Assembly (NCBI GenBank): GCA_040387315.1
Contig: JAZKEA010000338.1
Location: 1-39,454, forward strand
From: Armatimonadota bacterium
GTDB lineage: Bacteria; Armatimonadota; Armatimonadia; Armatimonadales; Armatimonadaceae
Direction of reading: 5' to 3'
Length of the DNA stretch: 39,454 nt
The notes under the pieces were generated by a model that was given only the letters and a program-made list of their open reading frames with translations, made no database searches and was not told where the DNA came from. The position numbers and the translations under genes are program-made. Below are positions 11,831-30,947 of this stretch, piece by piece. Every line of letters starts with the position of its first letter. Within the stretch, counting starts at the first letter, position 1.

Positions 11831-12505
11831 AGCCAAAACCGACCTTGCCAGAAACACGATCCACCGCTTTGTGCGCCCCGGTAAATTTCCCGAGATTACG
11901 CAACATCCGGCCCGTCACCGAAAGACGACACCGTTTGTGGACCGTATGCGCTTGCGTTGAACAGAAGGTCGCTACAACGCCGTGGAACTGTATCAGGAGA
12001 TTGTCGCCAAAGGGTTCACCGGCAGCCTTGATCTGGTCCAGCGGTTCGTCGGTACCTGGCGCGAGCAACCCCGGGTCGAATCAATGGTCGGCACCCGCCG
12101 CCTCTCGTACCGACGAGCAATAATCTGGCGTTCTTTTTGACAAACCCTACGCACCCCAGATTGACCGTGGACGGTAAGACATTCATGGAGCGGCTTACCC
12201 GGAAGCATACGACGTTTTTGTCTGCGCAGTCGTTTTGTCTGGAGTTCTGCCGTTTGATTCGAGAACGCGATTTGAAGGGCTTTCCCGGTTGGCTGGGAAC
12301 GGCTTCCGGCAGCGAAGTGACCGAACTTCAATGCTTCGACAGCCGCACTGTCTTGTCCTGGTCCAATGGTCAGGTTGAAGGGCAAGTCAACCGCCTCAAG
12401 TTTATCAAGCGGTCCATTTATGGAAGCGCTTCCTTCAATTTGCTTAAAGCGCGGCTCCTGCACCAACCAAGAGATACGAAACAGCTTAACCCGGGGGTCG
12501 CCTGA
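11818..12505 (+). pseudogene. ISL3-like transposase relic: the 3-prime part only, with an in-frame stop and a frameshift
   Basis: The pieces read …ARNTIHRFVRPGKFPE…PFVDRMRLR*TEGRYNAVELYQEIVAKGFTGSLDLVQRFVGTWRE…LSYRRAIIW, then a shift, then FFLTNPTHPRLTVDGKTFMERL…GWLGTASGSEVTELQCF…WSNGQVEGQVNRLKFIKRSIYGSASFNLLKARLL. The TGA at 11958-11960 sits where these transposases have Trp (RW.EG..N). A frameshift lies near 12126-12131. The HTH and DDE parts are absent. Confidence 0.7.
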
Positions 12506-12639
12506 GATCCGACAGCGGGAAACCGGTCACTGCCGGTTCGGGAATGGTCACGACAACTGCCCACCAAATTCACGGGGGATCTCAATCTACCTTCTACCTT
12601 CGGTTTGACATGGCAGGGATCGAATACACATAATTACCT

Positions 12640-13002
12640 TTAGACCCTATCCTCACGACGCAACGAAGATTTCACGTCCACACGGGTTACTTTATCTAGG
12701 GTGAAATCGAAAAGTCCCCAATCGGCCTTATACAGTGAAACAATGCCTTCGATATAACAGTATTTTTTGTTCTTCTCACGAACGAATTTATCGTCTATTC
12801 TCAGAGAGCGGTCTAGCATGAAGTTAACCTTAGTATCTAGACCATATTTATAATCGATATGCGTGGGATAAATCGCACTAGACTCTTCGACATATTTGGA
12901 GACGACGAAAAAAGCGGTGATGAGCACCTTTTTTCCGACGAACTCTTTCTTTCGAGCAAAGAGTTCGTAAAGAGTAATCGAGATAGGGGTGTCGTTTGCC
13001 AT
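12640..13002 (-). CDS. Putative immunity protein for the upstream RHS toxin
   Basis: A 120-aa (ATG 13002) to 130-aa (GTG 13032) ORF on the same strand, immediately downstream of the RHS toxin gene. It is visibly AT-rich compared with the RHS repeat region. No family was recognised; the call rests on position. Confidence 0.5.
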   Translation of the reverse strand: MANDTPISITLYELFARKKEFVGKKVLITAFFVVSKYVEESSAIYPTHIDYKYGLDTKVNFMLDRSLRIDDKFVREKNKKYCYIEGIVSLYKADWGLFDFTLDKVTRVDVKSSLRREDRV

Positions 13003-13170
13003 AGTAGATGCCTTTACAGTTATTGGTGTCACTCAAGACAAATCCCTAAGGATACGCCGAGACGATTTGCGGAGTCTTAGGTATCACCTGCAGAGAGTTC
13101 GCAGTCAGCTTTCCCAAACGATTCATGCCAGAGTTCGCCTTACACAGCAGTTACTTCTCTATAATTCTGC

Positions 13171-13203
13171 GATCCCAGCAGAGATTAATTCTCTGCTGGG
13201 ATC
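13171..13203. other. Perfect 13-bp hairpin between the RHS toxin and its putative immunity gene
   Basis: GATCCCAGCAGAG (13171-13183) pairs with CTCTGCTGGGATC (13191-13203) around the 7-nt loop ATTAATT. There is no flanking T-run on either strand. Confidence 0.6.
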
Positions 13204-13300
13204 AGCATACGGATGCTAAAGGTATAAAAGACTGAGGAGCGGTGTTTCTAGCCTCTTAGATTGTCGATATGATTTTCCCTGAATCCATGCCTTATGACTT

Positions 13301-16300
13301 CTAAGGATGCCATCTTTTTCCTTTATCCATATCCTTTTCCTCAGGCAGAAAATGGCCATTAGCACTTCCACCCGGAGTATTTTCTAGTACATCAAGCTCC
13401 GACAATCCTCGATTATAAACTAGCCACAATTTGGGGACTTTAGCCTTTTTAGCCGAGTCGACATCATAACCGCTGAATCTACCTGGATTACCCCACATTG
13501 CACCGGGAGGTCTGTCCGGCATGGGGTCACCTTTGTCATAAGGGTGAGTATGTATATAACCTGCTGCCCCAGGTGCAAAGGTTGGATTTGGGATCACGCT
13601 TTCAGTGCCAATATCTATGGGGCCAACAGTGAAATCATTTATCGGCTTTCCGTTCCCGTCCTTGTTTCCCGTATCATGAGGAACAATAGATGCCCCCCAT
13701 TCCTTGTCCTTTTTAGATTTATCCCAGGCATAATCCGCAAAAGCTTTTACCGCTTCATAAGTTGACGGATAAACTTTGCCTTTAAAGTGGGCATCTGCGT
13801 CTGATTTCGCATCCAACCCTTCCGGATCAATCGCATTGATCGGATCGTTCTCGCAGTAAGCGTACCAGTTCTTTCCCGCTTGAATGGGATCACGGCTGAT
13901 AAATCTTCCCGTACTGTTATCGTAGTATCGATGCCCAAGCCGCATCAGTCCGCTGTCCGTATCACTCTGGTAACCGTTTCCGCCGCCGAATCCAAACGGC
14001 GTCCCCGTTCCTGAACCAAATACGGTCATTCCAAAGGCATCTGTTTCCAGACTCGCGGAAGTGTTGCCACTCGCATCGGATAGGGTTCTTGTGGTTCCCA
14101 GGCTGTCGGCGTGGTAGACGCGGGTGTTGCCACCTCTGACCTCGGAAATAAGCCCCATTCCATACTGATAGGTCGCCGCGCCATCGGCAAGCACATTAGC
14201 ATCAATGGCATCGTCGGCGAGTTTGTAGGAGAAGGTGCCTGTGCTGTCAGACTTTCCGACTCTTTGCCCGAGTCCGTTGTAGGTGAAGGAGTTCGTCGCG
14301 CTTGACGGATACGTGATTCCGGTCAGTCGGCTTGCCCCGTCCCAGTTCAGAGTCGTCGTATTCGATCCCGTAGTCACACTCGTCGTGTTACCCGCGCCGT
14401 CATACGTATAGGTCTTCGCTCCCGCCGACTGTAGTTTGTTGGCAGAGTCGTAGCTGTAATACTCGGTCGTGCTTCCCAGCGTCTTCGTCAGTCTGTTTCC
14501 CGCATTGTCATAAGAATAACCGACCGTGTATCCAAGACCGCCTGTTCTGATTTCATCAGTCAACTGCCCCGCGTTGTCATAGGTGAACGACCGGACCGAA
14601 CTGTCCGCAAGCGTTTCCGTTGCTTTCCTGCCCAGGCTATCGAATGTGTAGGTCTGCCTGGAGATCACCGCGTTTGTGGTCGTGTTCTTCGTCTCAATCT
14701 GGAGAAGATCACCCGTTGCAGAATCGTAGGAGCGCGTTTCTCCCGTGCTGTTGGGGAATGCCGTGGTGGACAGGCGACCAAGCGTGTCGCAAGAATATGT
14801 CGTTGTACCTGCGCCTGTCACTGCCGTACTCAGCCGTCCCGCACTATCGTAAGTGTAGGAAGTAGTCTGACCGCTCACGGTTCGGCTCGTCTTCTGGCCC
14901 GCCGCGTTGTAAGCATACGCGACACTGCCCTGCGGACTCGTTCGCCCCGTCATCCGACCGGCGTTGTCATAAGAATAGGACGTGGTTCCTGTACCATCGA
15001 CCATGCTCGTTTTGCGATTTTCCACATCGTAGCCAAATGACACGGATGCAGTTACTCCGTCATCATAGGAGATCGCCGTTGCCCGACCCGCATCATCATA
15101 GGAAAGGTATTGCGTAACAGACCTACCATCCGTCGTGCTGGCGAGATTTCCTCGGGCATCATAACTGTAACTTTCACCGTTGTAGTCGGGATAGGAGAGA
15201 CTCGTTAGGTGGCTGCGACCGTCATAGACATAATACGTCGTGTTTCCGTTGCCATCGGTGAAGGATGTTTTGTTCCCGCTGGCATCGTAGCCGTAATAGA
15301 CCACGCGGCTCAAAGCGTCCGTGTGACTGGTCAGTTTCCCTGCCGCATCGTAAACGAAGGTATTCGTCTGCGAGAGGGCATTGGTCTGTGTTAGCTTGTT
15401 GCCGCCGAGATCATAGGTAAAGGAGGTAGTGCGACCTCCTGGCGCGGTGACGCTTGCCACATTACCGGTGCTGTCATAAACCGTCGTCGTTGTCAGCGCA
15501 CTGGTTCCCGAACCCGCAGTTGCTGTCAAGGGGCGTCCCAAAGCGTCAAAGGTCGCTGTGGAAACGCGGCTGGTCGGGTCCGTGGTGCTAACCTTGTTGC
15601 CGTCGAGATCATATTGAAACGTCGTCGTGTGGCTGAGGGCGTCCGTCGCCGAGGTAGGCAATCCATAGCTGCCATACGTGCCCGAATACGCAAGGGTTGT
15701 TGTCTCAGAGTTCGGATTCGTCACACTCGTCGGATTGCCGTTTGTGTCATACGTATACGTGGTGACGCGGCTTCCCGCTGTCGTAATCGTGAGTGGCTGG
15801 TTCAGCGCGTTGTACGTCGTTGTTGTCGTGTGCGAGAGCGGGTCCGTCGCCGTGAGCTGGTTGCCTGCGCCGTCATAGGTGAACGTCCATACCTTGCTCG
15901 CCGCGTCCGTTACCTGCGTCTTGTTGAAGTTCGAGTCGTAGGAGTAAGAGGTCGTGTAGTTCTGCTGATCGACGACGCTCGAAAGCTTTCCGCCGCTGTA
16001 GTTGTGGCGGATCGCGTAGCTGCGCGGATCAGTGATGGTTGTGTAGCCGCTCGTATAGCCGTAGCTCGTGGTCTGCGAGAGCGGGTTCGTCTCGGTTAGA
16101 ACCGCGTTGTTGCTCGAATACGTGAACGTCCAGTTCTGGCTCCGGGCATCGGTCAGCGTCGTGACGCAGTGGTTGGCGTTATAGGCAAGCGTGGCAGTGG
16201 GATTGAGGCCGCTTGCGGGAATGGCGGAGGGATAAATGACCTGGTAGAGATCGCCCCCGGTGTTATAGGACAGGAGGAAGCTGCGTCCCAGCGGGTCCGT

Positions 16301-17050
16301 TATCTCCGTTAGCTTGTTGCCCGTGCCATAGGTGAAGGTGAGGGCGCGGCCCGAGGGATCGGTCACTGCCGTTACGAAGTCGCCGCTGTTGTGGGCGATG
16401 GTGATCGTGTTGCTGTTCCTGTCACTGATCGACACGCAGTTCCAGCGGTTGCCCGTGCCGCCGCTGAACAGGTAGGTGACGCCAGATTTCGTGGTCAGGG
16501 CGAAGCTTGTCGGATTGTTGTTTGTGTCCCAGGCGGCAACCAGGCTGTCATGGATGCCCGTGGGTGCAAAGTAGTCGCCCGATACCCCGTCGAAGGCGAA
16601 AGGGTAGGCGAGGCCGTCGCCCCAGTGAATACTTGCCGTGCCTGTCACGGGGTCCGTCACAAGGTAGATATCGTAGCTATGGCTCCACTTTGCACCCATT
16701 TCGCTCGTGCCCTCGCCCTGCGAGTTGTGGAACAGTGAGAGCGAGACGGGCAGACCTCCCCGTGCGGTCCAGCCGACGATGGGGAGGGTGGTCATCTTGT
16801 TGCCGTTGCCGGTGTTGGTGCCCGTTCCCGACTGCCCTTCCCAGGGATAAGCGGAACCAGGTTCTTCTGTCAACGAGAATTGAAGTTCGTCGATCCCTCC
16901 AGGTCCTCCCCCGCCGTCAACGGCATAGGCGATAGGAGAGGGAAGGAGAAAGAGAGAAAGGAAGACGGAAAGAGGAAGGAGCCTGCGAAGGCAGGAGGGA
17001 CGGGCATCTGCGTGACCATCCTTGTGACGACGAGAAACAGCGACAACCAT
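13301..17050 (-). CDS. RHS/YD-repeat polymorphic toxin with a Sec-type signal peptide and a ~170-aa C-terminal toxin domain
   Basis: Many YD repeats are present (…YTYDxxGNxxS…). The RHS core end reads GHRYYDNSTGRFISRDPIQAGKNWYAYCENDPINAIDPEGL. The start is preferred at 17050 (MVVAVSRRHK…RRLLPLSVFLSLFLLPSPIAYA) because GAGGAG lies 9 nt upstream. The track ORF extends to 17179. Confidence 0.9.
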   Translation of the reverse strand: MVVAVSRRHKDGHADARPSCLRRLLPLSVFLSLFLLPSPIAYAVDGGGGPGGIDELQFSLTEEPGSAYPWEGQSGTGTNTGNGNKMTTLPIVGWTARGGLPVSLSLFHNSQGEGTSEMGAKWSHSYDIYLVTDPVTGTASIHWGDGLAYPFAFDGVSGDYFAPTGIHDSLVAAWDTNNNPTSFALTTKSGVTYLFSGGTGNRWNCVSISDRNSNTITIAHNSGDFVTAVTDPSGRALTFTYGTGNKLTEITDPLGRSFLLSYNTGGDLYQVIYPSAIPASGLNPTATLAYNANHCVTTLTDARSQNWTFTYSSNNAVLTETNPLSQTTSYGYTSGYTTITDPRSYAIRHNYSGGKLSSVVDQQNYTTSYSYDSNFNKTQVTDAASKVWTFTYDGAGNQLTATDPLSHTTTTTYNALNQPLTITTAGSRVTTYTYDTNGNPTSVTNPNSETTTLAYSGTYGSYGLPTSATDALSHTTTFQYDLDGNKVSTTDPTSRVSTATFDALGRPLTATAGSGTSALTTTTVYDSTGNVASVTAPGGRTTSFTYDLGGNKLTQTNALSQTNTFVYDAAGKLTSHTDALSRVVYYGYDASGNKTSFTDGNGNTTYYVYDGRSHLTSLSYPDYNGESYSYDARGNLASTTDGRSVTQYLSYDDAGRATAISYDDGVTASVSFGYDVENRKTSMVDGTGTTSYSYDNAGRMTGRTSPQGSVAYAYNAAGQKTSRTVSGQTTSYTYDSAGRLSTAVTGAGTTTYSCDTLGRLSTTAFPNSTGETRSYDSATGDLLQIETKNTTTNAVISRQTYTFDSLGRKATETLADSSVRSFTYDNAGQLTDEIRTGGLGYTVGYSYDNAGNRLTKTLGSTTEYYSYDSANKLQSAGAKTYTYDGAGNTTSVTTGSNTTTLNWDGASRLTGITYPSSATNSFTYNGLGQRVGKSDSTGTFSYKLADDAIDANVLADGAATYQYGMGLISEVRGGNTRVYHADSLGTTRTLSDASGNTSASLETDAFGMTVFGSGTGTPFGFGGGNGYQSDTDSGLMRLGHRYYDNSTGRFISRDPIQAGKNWYAYCENDPINAIDPEGLDAKSDADAHFKGKVYPSTYEAVKAFADYAWDKSKKDKEWGASIVPHDTGNKDGNGKPINDFTVGPIDIGTESVIPNPTFAPGAAGYIHTHPYDKGDPMPDRPPGAMWGNPGRFSGYDVDSAKKAKVPKLWLVYNRGLSELDVLENTPGGSANGHFLPEEKDMDKGKRWHP

Positions 17051-17242
17051 GAACGCGATCTCCTCAGTCAAACAATGACGCCAAAAGGCTTTGAGGAGTG
17101 ATCCAAACTTGCGCTTGAAGGTCCTGGAGGTCTTTGAGCGGTTTGGCGGAAGCGTTCCCGCATTAAAGCAGCGGAACATGCCCGAACGCCAGAGTGTACG
17201 AGAGAGCGAAGCCGTTGCTCTAGCGCAGCGGGTGTTATCGCG

Positions 17243-21904: not shown

Positions 21905-22738
21905 CTAGAAATCTGCCGAGGCTCGCTCGGAATAATTGCCTTCAGGATCAGTAACCGAATCTAAAGCTTTTCCAAAGTCATGCTTCTGGCAGGGGCTCCT
22001 AATCACGCTAAGACGAATCTTTACCAGAGTCCAGGCTGCTATCATGCCATCAACCCAGGTGATCTTTTTCCCTTCGGAGCGCGTTCTTGGTAAATACCGG
22101 ATGGGTACTTCCGCTATCGTCAGGTTGTTGAGGATTATCAGCGCAGTCACTTCCGGATCAAAGTCGAAGTGCTGACAATTCAACTTCAATCCCTTGAGAA
22201 AGGGCGTCTCAAACGCTTTGTAGCACGTCGCCTCATCGGTTATCTTTACGCCGTAGAGCACCCGGACAAGCCACACCAACAAACGGTTCGCCAGAAGGCT
22301 GAGCAGTGGCATGTCCGGCCGACCCTCCAGAAAGCGAGACCCGAACACCACATCAATGCCCTCGGTGCGCAGCTTACCAATGATGGGGACGTAGTCCATT
22401 GGATTCAGTTCTAGATCCGCATCCTGAATGATCGTGTATTTGCCGCGCGCGTGCGGGATCGCCGTGCGTATTGCAGCCCCTTTCCCCCTATTGCGCTTGT
22501 GCGAAAAGACTCGCAGGGATCGGCCCGCCAGTTTCTCTGCCTTTTGAAGAATCGCGTAAGAACCGTCCGTCGAACCATCATCGACGACTATTATTTCCAG
22601 GTCGATAGGTACGGATAAGACCCGCGTGAGGACTTCCTCAACAGTGGAAGCTTCGTTGAAGACGGGAATAAGCACGGATAACTCCGGGGAGAAGGAACCC
22701 CGAGCAATGAGCTTTGAAGGCAGTGGGAGGCCACACAT
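21905..22738 (-). CDS. Family 2 glycosyltransferase (polyprenyl-phosphate sugar transferase type)
   Basis: LSVLIPVFNEASTVEEVL…IIVVDDGSTDGS…KRNRGKGAAIRTAI…YTIIQDADLE is the classic GT2 N-terminal signature, including DxD. Confidence 0.85.
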   Translation of the reverse strand: MCGLPLPSKLIARGSFSPELSVLIPVFNEASTVEEVLTRVLSVPIDLEIIVVDDGSTDGSYAILQKAEKLAGRSLRVFSHKRNRGKGAAIRTAIPHARGKYTIIQDADLELNPMDYVPIIGKLRTEGIDVVFGSRFLEGRPDMPLLSLLANRLLVWLVRVLYGVKITDEATCYKAFETPFLKGLKLNCQHFDFDPEVTALIILNNLTIAEVPIRYLPRTRSEGKKITWVDGMIAAWTLVKIRLSVIRSPCQKHDFGKALDSVTDPEGNYSERASADF

Positions 22739-22918
22739 AACAATACTCCTCCTGACGCCATCGACGAGAGCGATGGCAATCCTACAGTCCTGGTGAGTCC
22801 CGCGTATACTTTACACATCTAGACATTCCGCATACTCAGTAAGGTCTCTGTTTCGTGGCGATATTTGGCTGCTGAGCCTTGGCTTCATGGGCTATAAAGC
22901 GCCGCCAAATCTCTCACT

Positions 22919-24628
22919 CTATCTGTAGGAAAATGCCTTTTCTTCCTGCGGAACAGGGTTACTTACGCCTCCGTCTGCAAAAAAGATGGCATCATCGCCA
23001 TCGGAATAAACCATGGGCATGTGCAGGTCCGATTGCAGTAGAGTGAATAATCCGGGGTTCTGTTTCCTCTGTACGAAGACATAGGAGGCATGGAAGTCGT
23101 GCTGCAGAACCCTTGGGATGTCTTGTAGCTGATGATTATCAACGGGTAAAGTCGCCCTGTTTCCTGCCGCCGACTGTTGCAATTTATACAAACTTCGCAT
23201 AAAGCCGTACAGATGGGGGTCATAGGAGTAGAGGAAGATAGGATCGAATCCTCCCGGGTACCGGTTGTGTTTATTCCAAAAAAATAGTTCGTGAAACTGA
23301 GACCAGTCCGCGTGATAGACGAGGCTGCCCGCAGGCGTGTTCTCCTGCAGCCATTTTGTAGACCTCGCCATTCGATAGGGCGGAATGCCCGACCGCTGCA
23401 TCGAGATGGTTACGCGTGGCCACGTATAGGCCGCGGAGAGTATTAGCAGAAAAATCATCAGGGCGGGAACATCCAGCCGGACCAGCAACGCTTTGTGTGC
23501 AATGAGCGACTTTAAGTGGGGGTTCTCCCTGATAAAATCACGAACCACAAGGGCCATGAAGTAAACGGCAAACACCGCCCATAGATCGGTCCCGCGGGCG
23601 GATTGGAAAACCGACAAGGCACTGAAAAACACGCTCAGCGTGAGGGCAGTTTGCTTGAGGGTAGTTTCTCTAAGTGCTGGCGGAGCACCGCTGTCTTTTC
23701 TCTTCGGTTGCCGCTGCTGTGTCCGGTGTATCCTGTATATCCGCTGCATCCAAAACAATCCGATGACGCAAAACCATAAGAAGAACAGCGGTCCGAACTT
23801 CGTAACGAACGGCATCAGTCCGAGCGGCCCGAGTTCGCCTGGGGTATCTACTGGCTGACGCGTCAGATGGGCAATGGCAAGGCCCGCGCTTTGAACATAT
23901 AAGGAACGTATTGCGCCGATGGGATTTGGATGGAGCGCAATACCCGCTGCGACTCCCAGCACCGAGGCTTCCAGCGGCTTCAGGCGCCACTTTCTGGTTT
24001 GCAGATATTCCATGAATAGAAAGACGCCCGTAATCAGAGGGCATATCCAAAAAATGGTCTCGTGAACGAAGGTCAAGGCAAGCGTACAAAGGAACACATA
24101 CCGCAGCTTTCCTTTTCCTAAGAAAGAAAGGAGCAGGGCACATAGCCCCATCGAAATGACCTGCGGCCGTATCATGAGACATCTATAGGTTTCCGAGGGC
24201 GCGGAAACAAAGAGCAGGAGAGGCCACAAGTAAGGAAGCGGTACCTTTTCTCGATGCATTGCCCAGGCAAAGAGAACCATCATGAGCACGGGAAGAAAAA
24301 CGCCGCAAAGCTTCATTCCTGCTACGGCGTCGCTTGTGCTGGCTAGGGGCAGCAACAAACAGTGGAAACCATACCAGAGATCGGCGTTGTTGGTGCGAAG
24401 GACGGAATAAGCAGCCCACGGGAACGATTGATCCAGAATCCCCCGTTGTGCATACAGCTGGGCATGGGCAAAATGATAGAACGAGTCACGACCTGCAATA
24501 TTGGGCGATACGCCTTGAAACGTGTCAGCAATAGAATGAGCTGAAAGAAGGAATATTAGAAACGCACAGCTTCGTAGAGTTCGTCGGTTTCTGAGTTGAG
24601 AAAATTCATTTTGGTAGTGGATCTTCAT
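22919..24628 (-). CDS. Large polytopic membrane protein, probable GT-C-type (ArnT/PMT-like) glycosyltransferase
   Basis: A 569-aa protein with more than ten hydrophobic segments followed by a soluble C-terminal region. It sits directly upstream of a GT2 gene, the common lipid-carrier GT2 plus GT-C pairing. The family is inferred from architecture only. Confidence 0.55.
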   Translation of the reverse strand: MKIHYQNEFSQLRNRRTLRSCAFLIFLLSAHSIADTFQGVSPNIAGRDSFYHFAHAQLYAQRGILDQSFPWAAYSVLRTNNADLWYGFHCLLLPLASTSDAVAGMKLCGVFLPVLMMVLFAWAMHREKVPLPYLWPLLLFVSAPSETYRCLMIRPQVISMGLCALLLSFLGKGKLRYVFLCTLALTFVHETIFWICPLITGVFLFMEYLQTRKWRLKPLEASVLGVAAGIALHPNPIGAIRSLYVQSAGLAIAHLTRQPVDTPGELGPLGLMPFVTKFGPLFFLWFCVIGLFWMQRIYRIHRTQQRQPKRKDSGAPPALRETTLKQTALTLSVFFSALSVFQSARGTDLWAVFAVYFMALVVRDFIRENPHLKSLIAHKALLVRLDVPALMIFLLILSAAYTWPRVTISMQRSGIPPYRMARSTKWLQENTPAGSLVYHADWSQFHELFFWNKHNRYPGGFDPIFLYSYDPHLYGFMRSLYKLQQSAAGNRATLPVDNHQLQDIPRVLQHDFHASYVFVQRKQNPGLFTLLQSDLHMPMVYSDGDDAIFFADGGVSNPVPQEEKAFSYR

Positions 24629-25107: not shown

Positions 25108-25611
25108 TTAAATATCAGATAAACGTGCTCGGGTCTTATCCAAATAGTCCTTCCAGTTCTCCATCATCTTGTTTTGGTTCTCAGATAATGTGTGCGATGT
25201 AGTGTCATAACCGTTACTTGGCCCCATAAAGTTTACGAACGCAACAATTTCTTCTGGATAGTCAAAATTGGCATATACCTCCTCTACTTTTCGCAGTGAA
25301 CCTTCTATCGAATCTTGGTTTTCATACAGCCATAACAACGTAAGAAATAACCATTTTTCTTTGCTAACGAGCTTTGGGATAGCTTCCTTTCTCGATAACT
25401 CTTCGATTATTTGCCCCACCTTCCAATCTTGGTCCTTTTGAACCCCAGCGAGTTCAAATTCGAGCAGATCGAATGATGTATCAGTCTTAAGCCTCACATT
25501 CGCTATCTCAATAGGCACTCTCCAACCAATGAGTTGTTTTTCGTAGCCCCAGAGTACATCTGACCAGGTGAGTGGGATATTTTTTGTTATAAAGTCGGTT
25601 GAATACGTCAT
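25108..25611 (-). CDS. Putative immunity protein of the C39-RHS toxin (DUF2247-like pattern)
   Basis: Its ATG overlaps the toxin stop (ATGA at 25608-25611). It is visibly AT-rich. …KEKWLFLTLLWLYENQDSIEGSLRKVEEVYANFDYPEEIVAFVNFM… recalls, from memory, DUF2247-type proteins found next to polymorphic toxins. Confidence 0.65.
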   Translation of the reverse strand: MTYSTDFITKNIPLTWSDVLWGYEKQLIGWRVPIEIANVRLKTDTSFDLLEFELAGVQKDQDWKVGQIIEELSRKEAIPKLVSKEKWLFLTLLWLYENQDSIEGSLRKVEEVYANFDYPEEIVAFVNFMGPSNGYDTTSHTLSENQNKMMENWKDYLDKTRARLSDI

Positions 25612-28600
25612 CTTCTTGGTTTTTGGTTCGGACTTCCGGAAACGATTCCCCCAGGTATAAATATTTGGTGCGTCAAGTCGCCATTCGAATCGACAATATA
25701 TTCATATATTCCTGTTTTGTCATTTAATCCACCGGGTATTTGAGTCAACGTTACATCTGTACCATCTCCATTTCTCCAAGGAAAATGTTGCCCATTTTCT
25801 GCAGCCTCGCCACGCATGAAGGTTGATGCCCTATGAAATGTATCGTCTTTGAGAGCAGATCCTTTAGGTTCGGCGCTCAGAAGAGCTAAACCCTGAGGGG
25901 GGCAATTTATATTAGGCCCAGAAGAAGCAGGCGAGGGAGCCGGCCTAGGTCCGGGAGGGGGAAACATACCGGGGCTGGGTATGTATGAAAAACCTCTCCC
26001 ACCGCTACTTCCACTAGGGGCACCGCCAACCCAACCACTGCCCGTGCTGCCAGCATCAGGAGTTTGCCCCGGTGGAATTCCGTTTCCGTTCGAATTTGAC
26101 GAATTATCATTCTCGTCCGGAACTCCGACAGGCGCATCCGGGCCTTTGTTTTCGTCCTCAGTACCTGTCCAGTCACTTCTATTAACAGCGTTGTTCTGGC
26201 AGTAACTATAGAGATTGATACCGCCGCTGTAACCAATAGGATCTCGGTTCAACCATCTACCGGTTCCGGGATCGTAGTAACGGAGGGTGCAGAGAATAAG
26301 TCCCGTTTCGTGGTCCCTATAGTAACCGGACTGTGCCCCAAATCCAGAGTAAGGGTCATTGGTCGCACTACTCGAAACCGTCACCCCAAAGGCGTCGGAG
26401 ATGTGGCTGGTGATCACACCGCCGGAACTATTGAGTCTCTGGGTTGTGTTGCCGCGCTCGTCGAAGGTATAGAAAACAGAGGCACTGCTACTCCGGCGCG
26501 AGATGAGTCCATTTGCCCCAAACGTGTTGACCGCCGATACACTGCCGCTGCCGTCAAGTTCTACGATAGGCCTCCCAGAGTCGTAGAGGAAGTAGGTCCG
26601 GTTGCTGGAAGCGTCTTGCTTCCAGGCTCTGACACCTTCAATCGTATAGTCGGCTGCCAGGGCACTGCCAAATGTGGTGGCTTTGTCGTTTTCGTCGAAA
26701 GCCAGGCTCGTGCCAGCGTACGTTGTTGGGTTGCCGTTCCCGTCGTAGACGTAACTGCTTCCGCTCGTTAGCTGATTCTTGCTGTTGTAGGAGCGGCCCA
26801 CCCCCTTGAACGTCGTCGGATTGCCTGCAGAGTCATAACCAAATCCGAACGTGTAACCGCTGTTTCGTGTGCTTGTCTCACCCGTTAGCTGATCCTTGAT
26901 GTCATAGCTATAGCCCGTGGTACCCGAGAGAGCAGAGACCGAGGGAACGCTCGCCGCGACACTGAGTCGGTTGCCGACGCCATCGTGGGTAATGCTGCCG
27001 AACTGCGAAAGCGTCGTGCTGCCCAGGGAATTCAACAGGTCCGTGGTCTGGCCGAGAGCGTTGTAGGTGTAGGCAGACACGACCCCATTTGCCATGACCT
27101 GCGCCGATAGCCAGTTATTGTTGGCGTAGCTCCAGCTGGTGGTCTCGCTGAAGGGGTTGGTCAGACTCGCGGGTCGACCTGCCGCATCAAAGGAGTAAGA
27201 GAATGACCCGCCCGGCGTGGTCATACCGGACCGGCTGCCGTTAGCATAGTAACTGTAGCTAATTGTCTGCGATGACAAGCCGGTATACGTCGTAGACCTG
27301 GTCAGGAGTTGATCCAGGTTACCGTAGGTGTAACTCTCACTGCCGGTCCCATCGGTTTTGCTGGTGCGCCTTCCGTAGCCGTCGTAGCTGAACTGAGCGT
27401 TGCGTGCTGTATGAGCCGGGTACTTGATGTCGGTCAGTGCACCGGCCGAGTCGTTGTACTCGTAGTTAGTGACGACTCCCCGACCATCGATTCTCTGAAG
27501 CAGATGTCCGGCAACGTCGTAGGAGGTGAACTGCGTTGTGTCACTGCCCGGCAGCACGATGCTCGATACATACCCCGCCGTGTTGTAGTTGTAGGTGGTG
27601 ACGTTGCTGTTGCCGTCCGCGAGCGTCTTGACGCGGTACAGGGCGTCATAGGTGTTGGTTACGGGTTCAGTGCTGCCGGTCGTGGTCAGCATTTCCCCTT
27701 CCAGCCCGTAGGTATAACTGACCTGGCGAATCTGTGCGCCATTTTCGTCGTAAAGACGGGTGCTGCTGAGCGGGCCACCGGGATACTGATAAACATTAGA
27801 CAGAGAGGAATTTCCCGTGCCTGTCTGCCCTGTGGCAGGAGAGAGTACCGTCAGGAGTTGATCCGCAATGTTGTATGTCGTGCTGGTTGTATTTCCGAGA
27901 GCGTCCCAGGCAACCGTCATCATCCCTCGATTACTGTACCGGGCATGGGATGTGTGACCCAGACTATCGGTAACCGTAAGCGGTCTTCCGATGGCAGCAC
28001 TCTGGGAATAGGTTCCGTCGGTGGTGTAGTTGAACGTCGTCGTGATCGTCGAGGCGGCGTTGTTGCCGGGCCCGGTGGCGGTCAGGACATTCCCGAGCGA
28101 ATCGTAGGTGAATGAGGCGGAAACAGTGCCAGAACCCGTGGGAGAGGGACCGGTTGCGGTGTTAAGTAGGCCGCTTGGTTCAAAGTAGGTGTAGGTTGTC
28201 GAGGGCTTGGTTCCCTGTTCCACCTCGGTCAGGCGTCCAAGCGCGAAGTTGGTATAGTCCCAGGTATAGGTCGTGAGCAATCCCCGGGTACTGGTAGATG
28301 AAAGAGGGTTCCCGAAAGAATCCCAGGTGTAGTAAGCTGTGCGACTCTGACTGTCGGTAACACTCGAAGGCTTAAACGGCGTGTTTGGATCACCATATGT
28401 TTTGGTATAGAGAACGTTGTTGTTGCCGTCAGTCTTAGAGACAGCGCTCATCTCGTTATTGAACTGTCCGGTATAACTAAACTCGACCTGTGACTGCGGG
28501 TTGGTAACCGTGACTTTCGTGTGGGTTCCGTTGACGACAGTAAAGGTATGCGTGTTACCGTTGGCATCGACAAGGCTGGTGACGTAGAGGGATGACGGGT

Positions 28601-30947
28601 CGTAGTTGATGGTTGAGCTACTGGTACCGGTTCCTGTGGGAGATGGAACGGTGATGGTATGCAAGAAAGGAGCCAGCGTTCCGTCGCCGTCGTAGACTAA
28701 CGATTGGTAACCGAATGTAAAGCGGGCGGGCGGATTCGTAGTTCCGGTGGGGACGATCTGAGAAACTTGGGTCAAACATGCGATAGAGGTATCCGTTTCA
28801 TAGTACACACTGCGGTTATAGCGATCCTCTACACTGGTTACATTGCTCTCAAAAGGACCGGATGCTCTGTTCACCGTTAAGAGCACCTGGTTCGCGTCAT
28901 CGGTGATCGTTCCTAAGACAGAATCAAAGACGATAGAGGTGACGTAGTTAAAGTTGATTCCCTGGCCCGTTCGGTTTTCTATACGATTCAGTGCATAAAG
29001 ACTCGAGTTTGTTGGAGTGTTATAGGTAAGATTCTTGGCTAGTTTCCACTTCGTGCCATCCTTCCACGTGACCAGAAAATAGTAATTTCCGGTCGCGCTG
29101 CTGTTCAGGTTTGGATCATATCCCCAGTCAATTGTGCAGGGAGCCCCCGCCTGAACAGAGCAATGAACCAGCGGCACGGAACTTGTGGGCGCACTTGATG
29201 AATAGAATGGTATGCCTGCACCGTTAGCGAGACTCAGGGACAGTTGTGACACGCCAGTTGTCGGGTTTTTCACCCGGTAAACGCAAACGTTGTAATTGTT
29301 TGACCAGCCTCTTCCAAAGTCTGACTTCACGTAGAATGAGGTCGGGCCGCCACTCGAAGTCGTCTCACGAGGCGCCCGCAGGCTGTTGTAGATTCGTTGC
29401 CACACAACAGCCGGGCCATTGGGGTTGTAAACTACGAGATCTGGCTCTGGCGTGTATTCCTCTTCCAACGTTGCAAGGTTAACCGGATCGCCGCACGCGG
29501 GGCCTCCGGGTAACCCCCCGAGGTTGTTGAGCAGGCATTCGATAAAACCTGCGCAGTGGAGCGAGAAGGTAAGTCCGCAACCAATACCGGGGAAATTGAA
29601 CCCGCTACCTGCCATCACTACATGCTGTGCAATCGCGGCGACCGCTGAGTCTATCCCATTGCCAAGCGGTCCGACAGGGGCAGAGGACGCCACCTGAATG
29701 CCTCTCTTAAGCCTCGTTGCGAGTGCGGTTTTTTCTGTGGAATTTGCCGCTAGTGCCAGTGCCTTGGTGAGCAAGGCATCGTCGCTGCTCCCTTTTTTCA
29801 CAACAGAAAGATAAAGGCGTGGTTCCATTTTGTGCCACTGTTTCCAGGTGAGTTTCACCTCGCCGCCGGGCCATTCCCCGCAGTCCGAACAGACGTAGGT
29901 AACGCCCAGGTTGTCTGCCCTGGTTACCGCGACAAAGTGATCGTGCTCAACGTAGGCCACGGCGGGAAGCGGAAGCGCCTTCAGTCCGGCATCGTCCGCG
30001 GAAACCACACGCCCGGTGACCCAGCGACCGCCCCCCAGCTTGTCACAGGCACTCATGAGGTCCTGCATGTTGCTGCCAAGACCGGTTACACGCGTGCTGG
30101 CAAGAAGTACCTTTTTGTCGTAAGGAAATTTCAGCGCCTTCAGACAGACTGCGAGCCCCGCTGCGCCGCATTCTGGGTCTAGTTTGGGAGGCTCGGGAAT
30201 GCCGAATTTGCTACGCTCTTCATGGTAGCCCGAACAGGCGAGGGCATGGCGCAGGAAGAGCGCACACTCCGCAGGGCTGTAGCCTGTGACACCTCTTTTT
30301 TGGCGAGTGTACAACAGAGATTTGAACTCAGCGGCCGCCTGCCTGTAGGCACCTTGGCGGAAATGCGTGACCGCGATCTCGTACAGAGCAAGGCCGTGTT
30401 GCGGGGAAGTAACGGGAGCGAGGTGCGCGGCTGTGCGGAAGTGGTAGAGCGCGGCACCAGGTTCCTCGTGCCCGGCAAGTTCCCACTCCCCGAGGCGAAG
30501 GTGGAGGCGAGCCGCCTGCAGACCTGGCGCCTTTCCAGCGTGAAGCTCGGCTTTCCACGCAGCTATCTGAGTTCCGGAAACAGATTCGGCAAGATGTCCC
30601 ACCTCATCCAGCAGAGAGCGATTAGAGGAATCAGGAACTTTTTGAAGGCGCGGCGCGGCCTGCGGTAAAGCCGATGAAGTCGCGGCTGAAGGTGCAACAG
30701 ATCGGCGTTCAGGGGACGTCGTCTTCGCAACAGGTCGAATCAACGCAGAATTCGGTGCAGCGGTCGGTCGATCTGGGGCCTGTGTTCGCGCGAGGAATGG
30801 TACCTGTGCAGCCATTCCGGGAAGACCCCGCAACGTCGCGAATGCCATGATAAGAAGTGGAGCCGTGAGCCAAGCGAGGCGGCGTTGACTCCGCAAACGA
30901 TTCTCGGGCGAATGCGCAGCTTCGTCTGAAAAAGAGGGCCTTCTCAT
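25608..30947 (-). CDS. Giant RHS/YD-repeat polymorphic toxin with an N-terminal signal peptide, TPR-like helices and a C39-like peptidase domain
   Basis: The signal/anchor is RRLAWLTAPLLIMAFATL. The C39-like block is PECGAAGLAVCLKALKF…LPAVAYVEHDHFVAVTRAD…LTWKQWHKM. A long run of YD repeats follows. The RHS core end reads LRYYDPGTGRWLNRDPIGYSGGINLYSYCQNNAVNRSDWTG. Then come a Gly/Ser/Pro/Asn linker and a ~95-aa C-terminal domain. Confidence 0.9.
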   Translation of the reverse strand: MRRPSFSDEAAHSPENRLRSQRRLAWLTAPLLIMAFATLRGLPGMAAQVPFLARTQAPDRPTAAPNSALIRPVAKTTSPERRSVAPSAATSSALPQAAPRLQKVPDSSNRSLLDEVGHLAESVSGTQIAAWKAELHAGKAPGLQAARLHLRLGEWELAGHEEPGAALYHFRTAAHLAPVTSPQHGLALYEIAVTHFRQGAYRQAAAEFKSLLYTRQKRGVTGYSPAECALFLRHALACSGYHEERSKFGIPEPPKLDPECGAAGLAVCLKALKFPYDKKVLLASTRVTGLGSNMQDLMSACDKLGGGRWVTGRVVSADDAGLKALPLPAVAYVEHDHFVAVTRADNLGVTYVCSDCGEWPGGEVKLTWKQWHKMEPRLYLSVVKKGSSDDALLTKALALAANSTEKTALATRLKRGIQVASSAPVGPLGNGIDSAVAAIAQHVVMAGSGFNFPGIGCGLTFSLHCAGFIECLLNNLGGLPGGPACGDPVNLATLEEEYTPEPDLVVYNPNGPAVVWQRIYNSLRAPRETTSSGGPTSFYVKSDFGRGWSNNYNVCVYRVKNPTTGVSQLSLSLANGAGIPFYSSSAPTSSVPLVHCSVQAGAPCTIDWGYDPNLNSSATGNYYFLVTWKDGTKWKLAKNLTYNTPTNSSLYALNRIENRTGQGINFNYVTSIVFDSVLGTITDDANQVLLTVNRASGPFESNVTSVEDRYNRSVYYETDTSIACLTQVSQIVPTGTTNPPARFTFGYQSLVYDGDGTLAPFLHTITVPSPTGTGTSSSTINYDPSSLYVTSLVDANGNTHTFTVVNGTHTKVTVTNPQSQVEFSYTGQFNNEMSAVSKTDGNNNVLYTKTYGDPNTPFKPSSVTDSQSRTAYYTWDSFGNPLSSTSTRGLLTTYTWDYTNFALGRLTEVEQGTKPSTTYTYFEPSGLLNTATGPSPTGSGTVSASFTYDSLGNVLTATGPGNNAASTITTTFNYTTDGTYSQSAAIGRPLTVTDSLGHTSHARYSNRGMMTVAWDALGNTTSTTYNIADQLLTVLSPATGQTGTGNSSLSNVYQYPGGPLSSTRLYDENGAQIRQVSYTYGLEGEMLTTTGSTEPVTNTYDALYRVKTLADGNSNVTTYNYNTAGYVSSIVLPGSDTTQFTSYDVAGHLLQRIDGRGVVTNYEYNDSAGALTDIKYPAHTARNAQFSYDGYGRRTSKTDGTGSESYTYGNLDQLLTRSTTYTGLSSQTISYSYYANGSRSGMTTPGGSFSYSFDAAGRPASLTNPFSETTSWSYANNNWLSAQVMANGVVSAYTYNALGQTTDLLNSLGSTTLSQFGSITHDGVGNRLSVAASVPSVSALSGTTGYSYDIKDQLTGETSTRNSGYTFGFGYDSAGNPTTFKGVGRSYNSKNQLTSGSSYVYDGNGNPTTYAGTSLAFDENDKATTFGSALAADYTIEGVRAWKQDASSNRTYFLYDSGRPIVELDGSGSVSAVNTFGANGLISRRSSSASVFYTFDERGNTTQRLNSSGGVITSHISDAFGVTVSSSATNDPYSGFGAQSGYYRDHETGLILCTLRYYDPGTGRWLNRDPIGYSGGINLYSYCQNNAVNRSDWTGTEDENKGPDAPVGVPDENDNSSNSNGNGIPPGQTPDAGSTGSGWVGGAPSGSSGGRGFSYIPSPGMFPPPGPRPAPSPASSGPNINCPPQGLALLSAEPKGSALKDDTFHRASTFMRGEAAENGQHFPWRNGDGTDVTLTQIPGGLNDKTGIYEYIVDSNGDLTHQIFIPGGIVSGSPNQKPRR

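Follow-up and report, generated by a model that had tools for sequence, protein, structure and literature searches.

An RHS protein of an Armatimonadota bacterium ending in a probable domain of the predicted toxin family Ntox19 and followed by a DUF2247 (Imm38) gene

Among the toxin domains catalogued by Zhang et al. (2012, PMC3482391), Ntox19 was described by the signature 'D,H,DxxxR,E,HxxF' and by its position at the C-terminus of polymorphic toxins. The published carriers are RHS proteins, filamentous haemagglutinins, MafB-N proteins and proteins of the type VII secretion system type, the published immunity partners are Imm38 and Imm40, and a fusion to ankyrin repeats was reported from mimivirus. 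As to activity, the prediction is an endoribonuclease that adopts the BECR fold, works without metal and relies on two histidines. The Ntox19 domain was described as alpha+beta with one N-terminal His and the second His in a C-terminal strand, at the S/T position of the BECR fold. Imm38 is the same family as DUF2247, for which NGO1392-like HNH toxins of beta-proteobacteria were named as partners besides Ntox19 (PMC3482391). In a 2023 review Ntox19 was still listed as uncharacterised (PMC9990079). Here we analyze a stretch of 39,454 nucleotides from an Armatimonadota bacterium (GenBank assembly GCA_040387315.1, contig JAZKEA010000338.1, positions 1 to 39,454), which as a whole is called the window in the following. 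It holds an RHS gene, RHS-2, whose C-terminal tip very probably belongs to Ntox19 and which is directly followed by a DUF2247 gene.

For the release of the toxin the closest described system is RhsA of P. protegens, a Rhs effector of the type VI secretion system. In this protein an aspartyl dyad formed by D1324 and D1346 brings about cleavage after W1350 of the motif PxxxxDPxG[W/L/F] (PMC8765631). With respect to activity, the characterised RNases of the BECR fold serve for comparison, i.e. colicin E5, colicin D and the EndoU toxin MafB(MGI-1, NEM8013) (PMC4287609).

The RHS-2 tip, its relatives and the downstream gene

RHS-2 (positions 25608-30947) encodes 1779 amino acids. According to open reading frame (ORF) calls and sequence, all features of the cassette are encoded on the minus strand of the window. 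The translation begins with a hydrophobic segment, followed by a TPR-like stretch and a C39-like peptidase domain; DUF6531, YD repeats and an RHS-associated core come next, and a linker connects the core to the toxin tip. Pfam matches were obtained for RHS_repeat (PF05593, E=2.2e-23), Peptidase_C39 (E=1.4e-6) and DUF6531 (E=6e-4), and NCBIfam matches for TIGR03696 Rhs_assc_core (E=8.8e-20, residues 1519-1595) and TIGR01643 (E=9.8e-14). With both YD repeats and RHS-associated core present, the domain content identifies RHS-2 as a putative RHS/YD-repeat polymorphic toxin. A first-pass annotation made from the sequence alone had proposed that this protein ends in a C-terminal toxin tip, and our analysis bears this out. 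The tip covers residues 1684-1779 (~96 amino acids, positions 25611-25898), and its composition is ordinary, unlike that of the preceding linker.

A word-indexed protein search with the tip alone returned nothing; relatives surfaced only in an exhaustive HMMER search of 1.84 billion representatives. This search yielded 703 clusters (grouped at 50% identity) with E<1e-3 and 322 clusters with E<1e-10, the best relatives being 53-61% identical to the tip. Of the 150 matches listed, 148 carry the domain C-terminally. A leave-one-out profile, from which the window sequence was excluded, scores the tip at 126.8 bits. Carriers of the family are CdiA/FhaB-type proteins (with Fil_haemagg_2, PT-VENN and DUF637), RHS proteins, RHS proteins with PT-HINT, Neisseria MafB and, from Bacillus mycoides, a protein that UniRef names PT-TG.

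Conserved columns were counted in 149 usable representatives and are given in RHS-2 numbering. D1702, G1746, E1749 and H1760 are found in all 149 sequences, G1719, Q1736 and F1763 in 148, H1705 in 147 and D1728 in 144, and 112 sequences have an Arg at the fourth residue behind D1728. The window tip keeps every invariant residue of the family. On the basis of these counts D1702, H1705, D1728, E1749 and H1760 are candidate catalytic residues, with Q1736 and F1763 also conserved. The family shows the published Ntox19 signature in the published order. In the window it is represented by D1702, H1705, D1728, E1749 and H1760..F1763, with V1732, where the signature has Arg, as the single deviation.

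The ORF downstream of the tip (positions 25108-25611, 167 amino acids) had been regarded as a DUF2247-like immunity candidate, and Pfam assigns it to this family: PF10004 matches with E=1.5e-39 over profile positions 2-157 of 158 (155/158 covered). Imm38 proteins are characterised as mostly alpha, with a Trp close to the N-terminus and an aromatic residue close to the C-terminus; W16, W21 and W30 as well as W153 and Y156 of the window protein correspond to these residues. As already described in the first-pass annotation, its start overlaps the RHS stop by 4 nt: the TGA stop and the ATG start share an ATGA at positions 25608-25611 (...CCAAGAAGATGACGTATTCA), an arrangement expected to couple the translation of toxin and immunity gene. 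The immunity protein has no sequence relative in the PDB, and its AlphaFold model, computed from the single sequence, is unusable with a predicted local distance difference test score (pLDDT) of 42.6.

To what extent this gene pair recurs was assessed in a genome scan with a narrower subfamily alignment of the tip, which found 56 loci from many phyla, 44 of them strong. DUF2247 lies directly downstream in 43 of the 44 strong loci (39 recognized by phmmer with the window protein, four divergent ones by Pfam); the remaining locus is 616 bp long and too short to tell. The gaps between toxin and DUF2247 gene in the strong loci are mostly -47 to +31 nt. In a divergent branch (L047-L057) only the central part of the profile was matched (E ~1e-10 to 1e-16), and the tip is followed by ORFs of ~100-120 amino acids. 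Five of these downstream ORFs were scanned and none matched DUF2247. Imm40 (PF15569) was found above the Pfam cut-off in two of them (E=1.3e-13 in L056 and E=2.1e-9 in L054), two gave weak Imm40 matches and one gave none. The tip family is thus paired with Imm38 or, in the divergent branch, with Imm40.

A concrete example of the pair comes from N. gonorrhoeae (NZ_CP119140.1, 1296677-1306946). Here mafA is followed by a MafB of 466 amino acids (PF06255, E=1.5e-162) and this by a DUF2247 MafI (E=7e-51), which is 33% identical to the window immunity protein. The C-terminus of the gonococcal MafB shares 48% identity with the tip (E=3e-26) and was used as a stand-in for the N. meningitidis type member of Ntox19. 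In PLSDB, NZ_CP119140.1 is a 'plasmid' of 2.17 Mb with 12 annotated features, evidently a misfiled chromosome, and mafA-mafB-mafI are unannotated there. The Logan contig SRR26324619_2464967 (3606 bp), from a public sequencing run, carries an identical immunity protein sequence and the same neighboring genes. The bacterium that the window comes from, or one very closely related to it, is present in the sample of this run.

Further published traits of Ntox19 are also found in the tip family: C-terminal location on polymorphic toxins, the same carriers, Imm38 and Imm40 as partners, and ankyrin homologues in giant viruses. Since motif, immunity partners, carriers and giant-virus homologues all agree with the published description, the tip family is very probably the Ntox19 of Zhang et al. 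(2012). The match was made to the published description of the family, which has NMW_1482 of N. meningitidis (gi 254673263) as its type member. Together with the DUF2247 gene the RHS-2 tip probably makes up a standard polymorphic-toxin cassette with an Ntox19-family payload and Imm38. With the described Ntox19/Imm38 systems (PMC3482391) and with the gonococcal pair it shares the pattern and order of the conserved residues, the C-terminal position on a polymorphic toxin, and the same immunity family directly downstream with overlapping start and stop. It differs in that the carrier is an RHS protein in Armatimonadota, a phylum outside the published range of Ntox19, in that Val replaces the Arg of DxxxR and Ile the Arg of HQRF, and in the linker, which is unusually rich in Gly, Ser, Pro and Asn.

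Several other toxins were considered and set aside. An NGO1392-like HNH toxin, the other published partner of Imm38, was rejected because the tip is without CxxC and DH motifs. MafB2 of N. meningitidis B16B6 (RNase A fold), YPO3609 and YPO3615 of Y. pestis (WHH and restriction-endonuclease-like, respectively) and MafB(MGI-1, NEM8013) (EndoU) belong to other families.

Fold, predicted activity and alternative readings

The first-pass annotation had suggested structure prediction and a Foldseek search for the tip. An AlphaFold (AF2) model from a 97-sequence alignment has a pLDDT of 92.1 and a predicted template modeling (pTM) score of 0.84; it begins with four short helices and continues with a 4-stranded sheet. 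Of the two His, H1705 sits in the helix at model residues 29-36 and H1760 in the strand that comes last (83-91), matching the arrangement of the two His published for Ntox19. When the model was compared to BFVD with Foldseek, seven of the top 15 matches were giant-virus proteins, five of them named as ankyrin-repeat proteins. The best ones come from Bodo saltans virus, Megavirus, Hyperionvirus and Edafosvirus (Mimiviridae) and are ankyrin-repeat proteins. For these matches the probability is 0.96-1.0 and the TM score 0.46-0.53, with weak E-values (6.8e-3 to 0.3), and five of them superimpose with a root mean square deviation of 2.6-2.9 A over 71-74 aligned columns. The same search against the PDB gave no significant neighbor: the best match, an unrelated protein, has E=0.078 and a TM score of ~0.3. 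Among the faint, not significant PDB matches are a chain of a Serratia contact-dependent inhibition (CDI) complex (E=0.89) and an RNase-like fungal effector (E=1.8).

In line with the published prediction, the tip would act as a metal-independent endoribonuclease via H1705 and H1760, together with D1702 and E1749, and we consider this RNase step reasonably likely. The earlier guess of a small RNase of the barnase/EndoU/colicin type agrees with the published prediction for Ntox19, and in both cases the activity is a predicted one. Like the characterised BECR RNases (PMC4287609) the tip is a small C-terminal alpha+beta domain with a predicted His-based chemistry, has a specific immunity protein encoded downstream and is carried by a polymorphic toxin. 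It differs from them in lacking detectable sequence similarity and significant Foldseek similarity to them, and in that the activity of its family is only predicted.

A number of results weigh against the tip being an Ntox19 ribonuclease and have to be set against this evidence. Scans of Pfam, NCBIfam, PADLOC and PHROGs gave no match to the tip, even when all 49 members of the alignment were scanned. As no library model covers the tip, the name Ntox19 rests on the published description and not on a model score. The window tip furthermore carries V1732 in place of an Arg conserved at 75% (112/149) and I1762 in place of an Arg conserved at 66% (99/149). Both arginines are also absent in 16 other representatives of the 149, which could point to a subgroup with different substrate binding. 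The model is without a significant PDB neighbor as described above, its topology is compatible with the BECR fold, which remains a prediction, and our literature search found no activity for either Ntox19 or Imm38.

The first-pass annotation had left the tip outside all named families, and it is indeed the case that neither Pfam, NCBIfam nor the PDB (searched with the tip sequence and with the family profile) gave a match and that the first, word-indexed protein search was empty. The 703 clusters of the exhaustive search, the score of the leave-one-out profile and the agreement of motif, both immunity partners, carriers and giant-virus homologues with the published Ntox19 largely refute a genuinely new toxin family, which we consider highly improbable. 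A confident mapping to a known toxin family had been named beforehand as the outcome that would overturn the novelty of the tip, and such a mapping is what was found. Less easily dismissed is the view that the tip is a real toxin of the Ntox19 family and not a BECR RNase, so that it would have another fold class or another target such as DNA, nucleotides or protein. A high-confidence model without a significant PDB neighbor, the lack of a measured activity for Ntox19 in the literature searched, and the invariant D/H/E/H set, which could also fit a metal-dependent hydrolase, speak for it. However, one His in an N-terminal helix, another in the last strand, and helices combined with a 4-stranded sheet are what was published as the BECR prediction, the faint matches to the Serratia CDI chain and the RNase-like effector point the same way without being significant, and in our judgement small BECR domains may escape Foldseek. 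We therefore regard a toxin of another fold or target as unlikely. As to the downstream gene, an anti-CRISPR role was once proposed for a DUF2247 protein at one Xenorhabdus locus (10.1101/2024.03.08.584182), and by extension the gene in the window might serve a function other than immunity. The same preprint notes the Imm38 reading, however, and a DUF2247 gene follows the tip family in 43 of the 44 strong loci across many phyla, which leaves a role outside immunity barely credible. An Ntox19-family toxin with Imm38 is accordingly the reading that we follow below.

Core end, linker and predicted release

The core of RHS-2 terminates in ...NNAVNRSDWTGT (also given as ...RDPIGYSGGINLYSYCQNNAVNRSDWTGT and ...RYYDPGTGRWLNRDPIGYSGGINLYSYCQNNAVNRSDWTGT), with D1592-W-T-G-T1596 at positions 26160-26174 occupying the place of the expected DPxGL. 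The core end from D1569 (in RDPIG) to T1596 lies at positions 26160-26243 and contains, as predicted from the sequence, the dyad of an aspartyl autoprotease together with the cleavage site. Compared to the consensus PxxxxDPxG[L/W/F], which is typical of RHS toxins without strictly defining them, the RHS-2 motif reads AxxxxDWxGT: Asp and Gly are kept and three consensus letters are changed (A, W and T). D1569 and D1592 are 23 residues apart, the same distance as counted in the sequence of the relative P0270.

In order to place this motif we compared it to 50 parsable core ends among relatives of the RHS-2 core (P0259-P0343). The residue after the core-end Asp is Pro in 40 of them and S, A, R, M, L or Y in the other 10. 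The last core-end residue is Leu in 18, Thr in seven, Tyr in six, Phe in three, and Trp and His in two each, further residues including C, N, E and Q, so that 32 of the 50 end in a residue other than Leu. An Ala at the first Pro position of the motif is also found among these relatives. The source names of the relatives point to Armatimonadota, Fimbriimonadaceae and Pyrinomonadaceae. For RHS proteins of this clade the textbook motif DPxGL is too strict, and the DWTGT end is a real but modest variant, near the relaxed variation of related cores. The earlier claim of an atypical core terminus thus stands insofar as DWTGT replaces DPxGL, and is to be toned down insofar as neither Asp is lost and related cores, too, show variation at the positions concerned.

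The protein is likely cleaved after T1596, which would free 183 residues. With the type VI secretion system Rhs effectors that have a canonical site, such as P. protegens RhsA (PMC8765631), RHS-2 shares the YD-repeat shell, the RHS-associated core, the two-Asp dyad and a toxin encoded after the motif. In contrast to the RhsA-type effectors its motif is AxxxxDWxGT, a Pfam scan of the protein detected neither a PAAR nor a VgrG domain, and the N-terminus consists of a hydrophobic, a TPR-like and a C39-like part. The C39-like papain-fold peptidase domain (residues 258-346, positions 29910-30176, Pfam E=1.4e-6) keeps both the usual Cys (..PECGAAGLAVCL..) and the usual His (..HDHFVAV..). The hydrophobic segment and the TPR-like matches lie upstream of it (residues ~1-250). 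Such a head is unusual for an RHS toxin, and it may have a bearing on export or processing.

Could the DWTGT end have lost autoproteolysis, so that the toxin stays unreleased and the cassette is decaying or working differently? Three letters of PxxxxDPxGL are replaced, and a Trp after the core-end Asp occurs in none of the 50 related cores, a result that also counts against cleavage as we propose it. On the other hand the two catalytic Asp are present with the same spacing as in P0270, relatives vary at the Pro position (10/50) as well as at the Leu position (32/50), RhsA cleaves after a Trp (PMC8765631), and ORF, invariant toxin residues and coupled immunity gene are all intact. A loss of autoproteolysis is on balance quite improbable. 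Slightly more room, though still rather little, is given to a wider departure from described systems: Ntox19, including the Arg-poor variant of the window (V1732, I1762), may represent a structurally unsampled fold with an unrecognised activity or substrate, and separately AxxxxDWxGT may stand for a release mechanism that is non-canonical or conditional, in RHS proteins of the Armatimonadota type with an N-terminal C39-like peptidase.

Between core end and tip lies a low-complexity linker of 84 amino acids (T1596-N1679, positions 25911-26162) with 17 G, 17 P, 13 S and 7 N. This confirms an earlier estimate of ~85 residues rich in Gly, Ser, Pro and Asn: these four account for 54 of the 84 residues (64%) compared to 31.5% in the RHS body, where no window of 84 amino acids contains more than 37. 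The linker measures 7-594 amino acids, mostly ~60-170, in 33 further members of the family whose core end can be recognised, so that the length in RHS-2 is ordinary. Its G/S/P/N content is above that of every family member examined (42% at most). Most simply the linker is probably a disordered tether inside the RHS shell, as its composition indicates; nothing points to a further domain within it.

Returning to cleavage at DWTGT followed by the action of an Ntox19 domain, the mechanism we propose for RHS-2 is as follows. The YD repeats would build a shell, and the payload would be the region after the core end, i.e. the disordered linker of 84 amino acids and the Ntox19-family domain of ~96. 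The D1569/D1592 aspartyl dyad would cut this payload off after DWTGT, and the domain would cleave RNA without a metal via the two His, with D1702 and E1749 taking part. DUF2247/Imm38, translationally coupled via the ATGA, would protect the producer by binding the toxin. Such direct binding is presumably how Imm38 blocks the toxin, by analogy to other immunity proteins. The cassette is probably used in interbacterial competition.

For the window itself this is little news, the RHS-2 cassette being routine. The Ntox19 family is very common, with members as far apart as Neisseria, Yersinia, Planctomycetes, Bacillota and giant viruses. Nevertheless it has neither a Pfam model nor a solved structure. 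Because the common libraries lack a profile, annotation pipelines leave Ntox19 blank and readers will go on reporting it as new. With a profile derived from the present alignment, MafB and CdiA toxins of pathogens would be annotated as well.

Base composition and neighboring genes

Tip and immunity gene had been described as visibly AT-rich, and the G+C content is 44.1% in the tip and 40.5% in the immunity gene compared to 56% in the RHS body. At third codon positions the G+C content (GC3) falls from ~0.65 in the core to ~0.31 in the tip, the fall beginning at residues ~1560-1600. Low GC3 continues through the immunity gene and 480 bp downstream, a region with short ORFs only. The base composition of the cassette is foreign from the core end onward, and the cassette looks acquired. 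The drop of GC3 at the core end fits an exchange of the C-terminal module by recombination, as commonly happens at RHS loci. No second copy of Ntox19 or DUF2247 and no orphan toxin or immunity cassette was found in the window.

A further RHS gene, RHS-1 (positions 13301-17179, minus strand, 1292 amino acids), resembles RHS-2 in having RHS repeats, DUF6531 and an AT-rich region downstream. It differs in its canonical core end ...NDPINAIDPEGL (DPEGL) and in its unrelated tip of ~180 amino acids with an HTHP motif, and it is without a copy of Ntox19 or DUF2247. The AT-rich stretch that follows RHS-1 (positions 12400-13600) has a G+C content of 0.44-0.48 and contains an ORF of 130 amino acids (positions 12640-13032) with no Pfam match. 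To judge from this arrangement, the end of RHS-1 and the downstream ORF form a putative second toxin-immunity cassette of another family.

The downstream neighbors of the RHS-2 cassette (positions 21905-24628, minus strand) are genes for a membrane protein of 569 amino acids with a weak EpsG-type match and for a family-2 glycosyltransferase; by their content they look like a surface-polysaccharide locus unrelated to the toxin.

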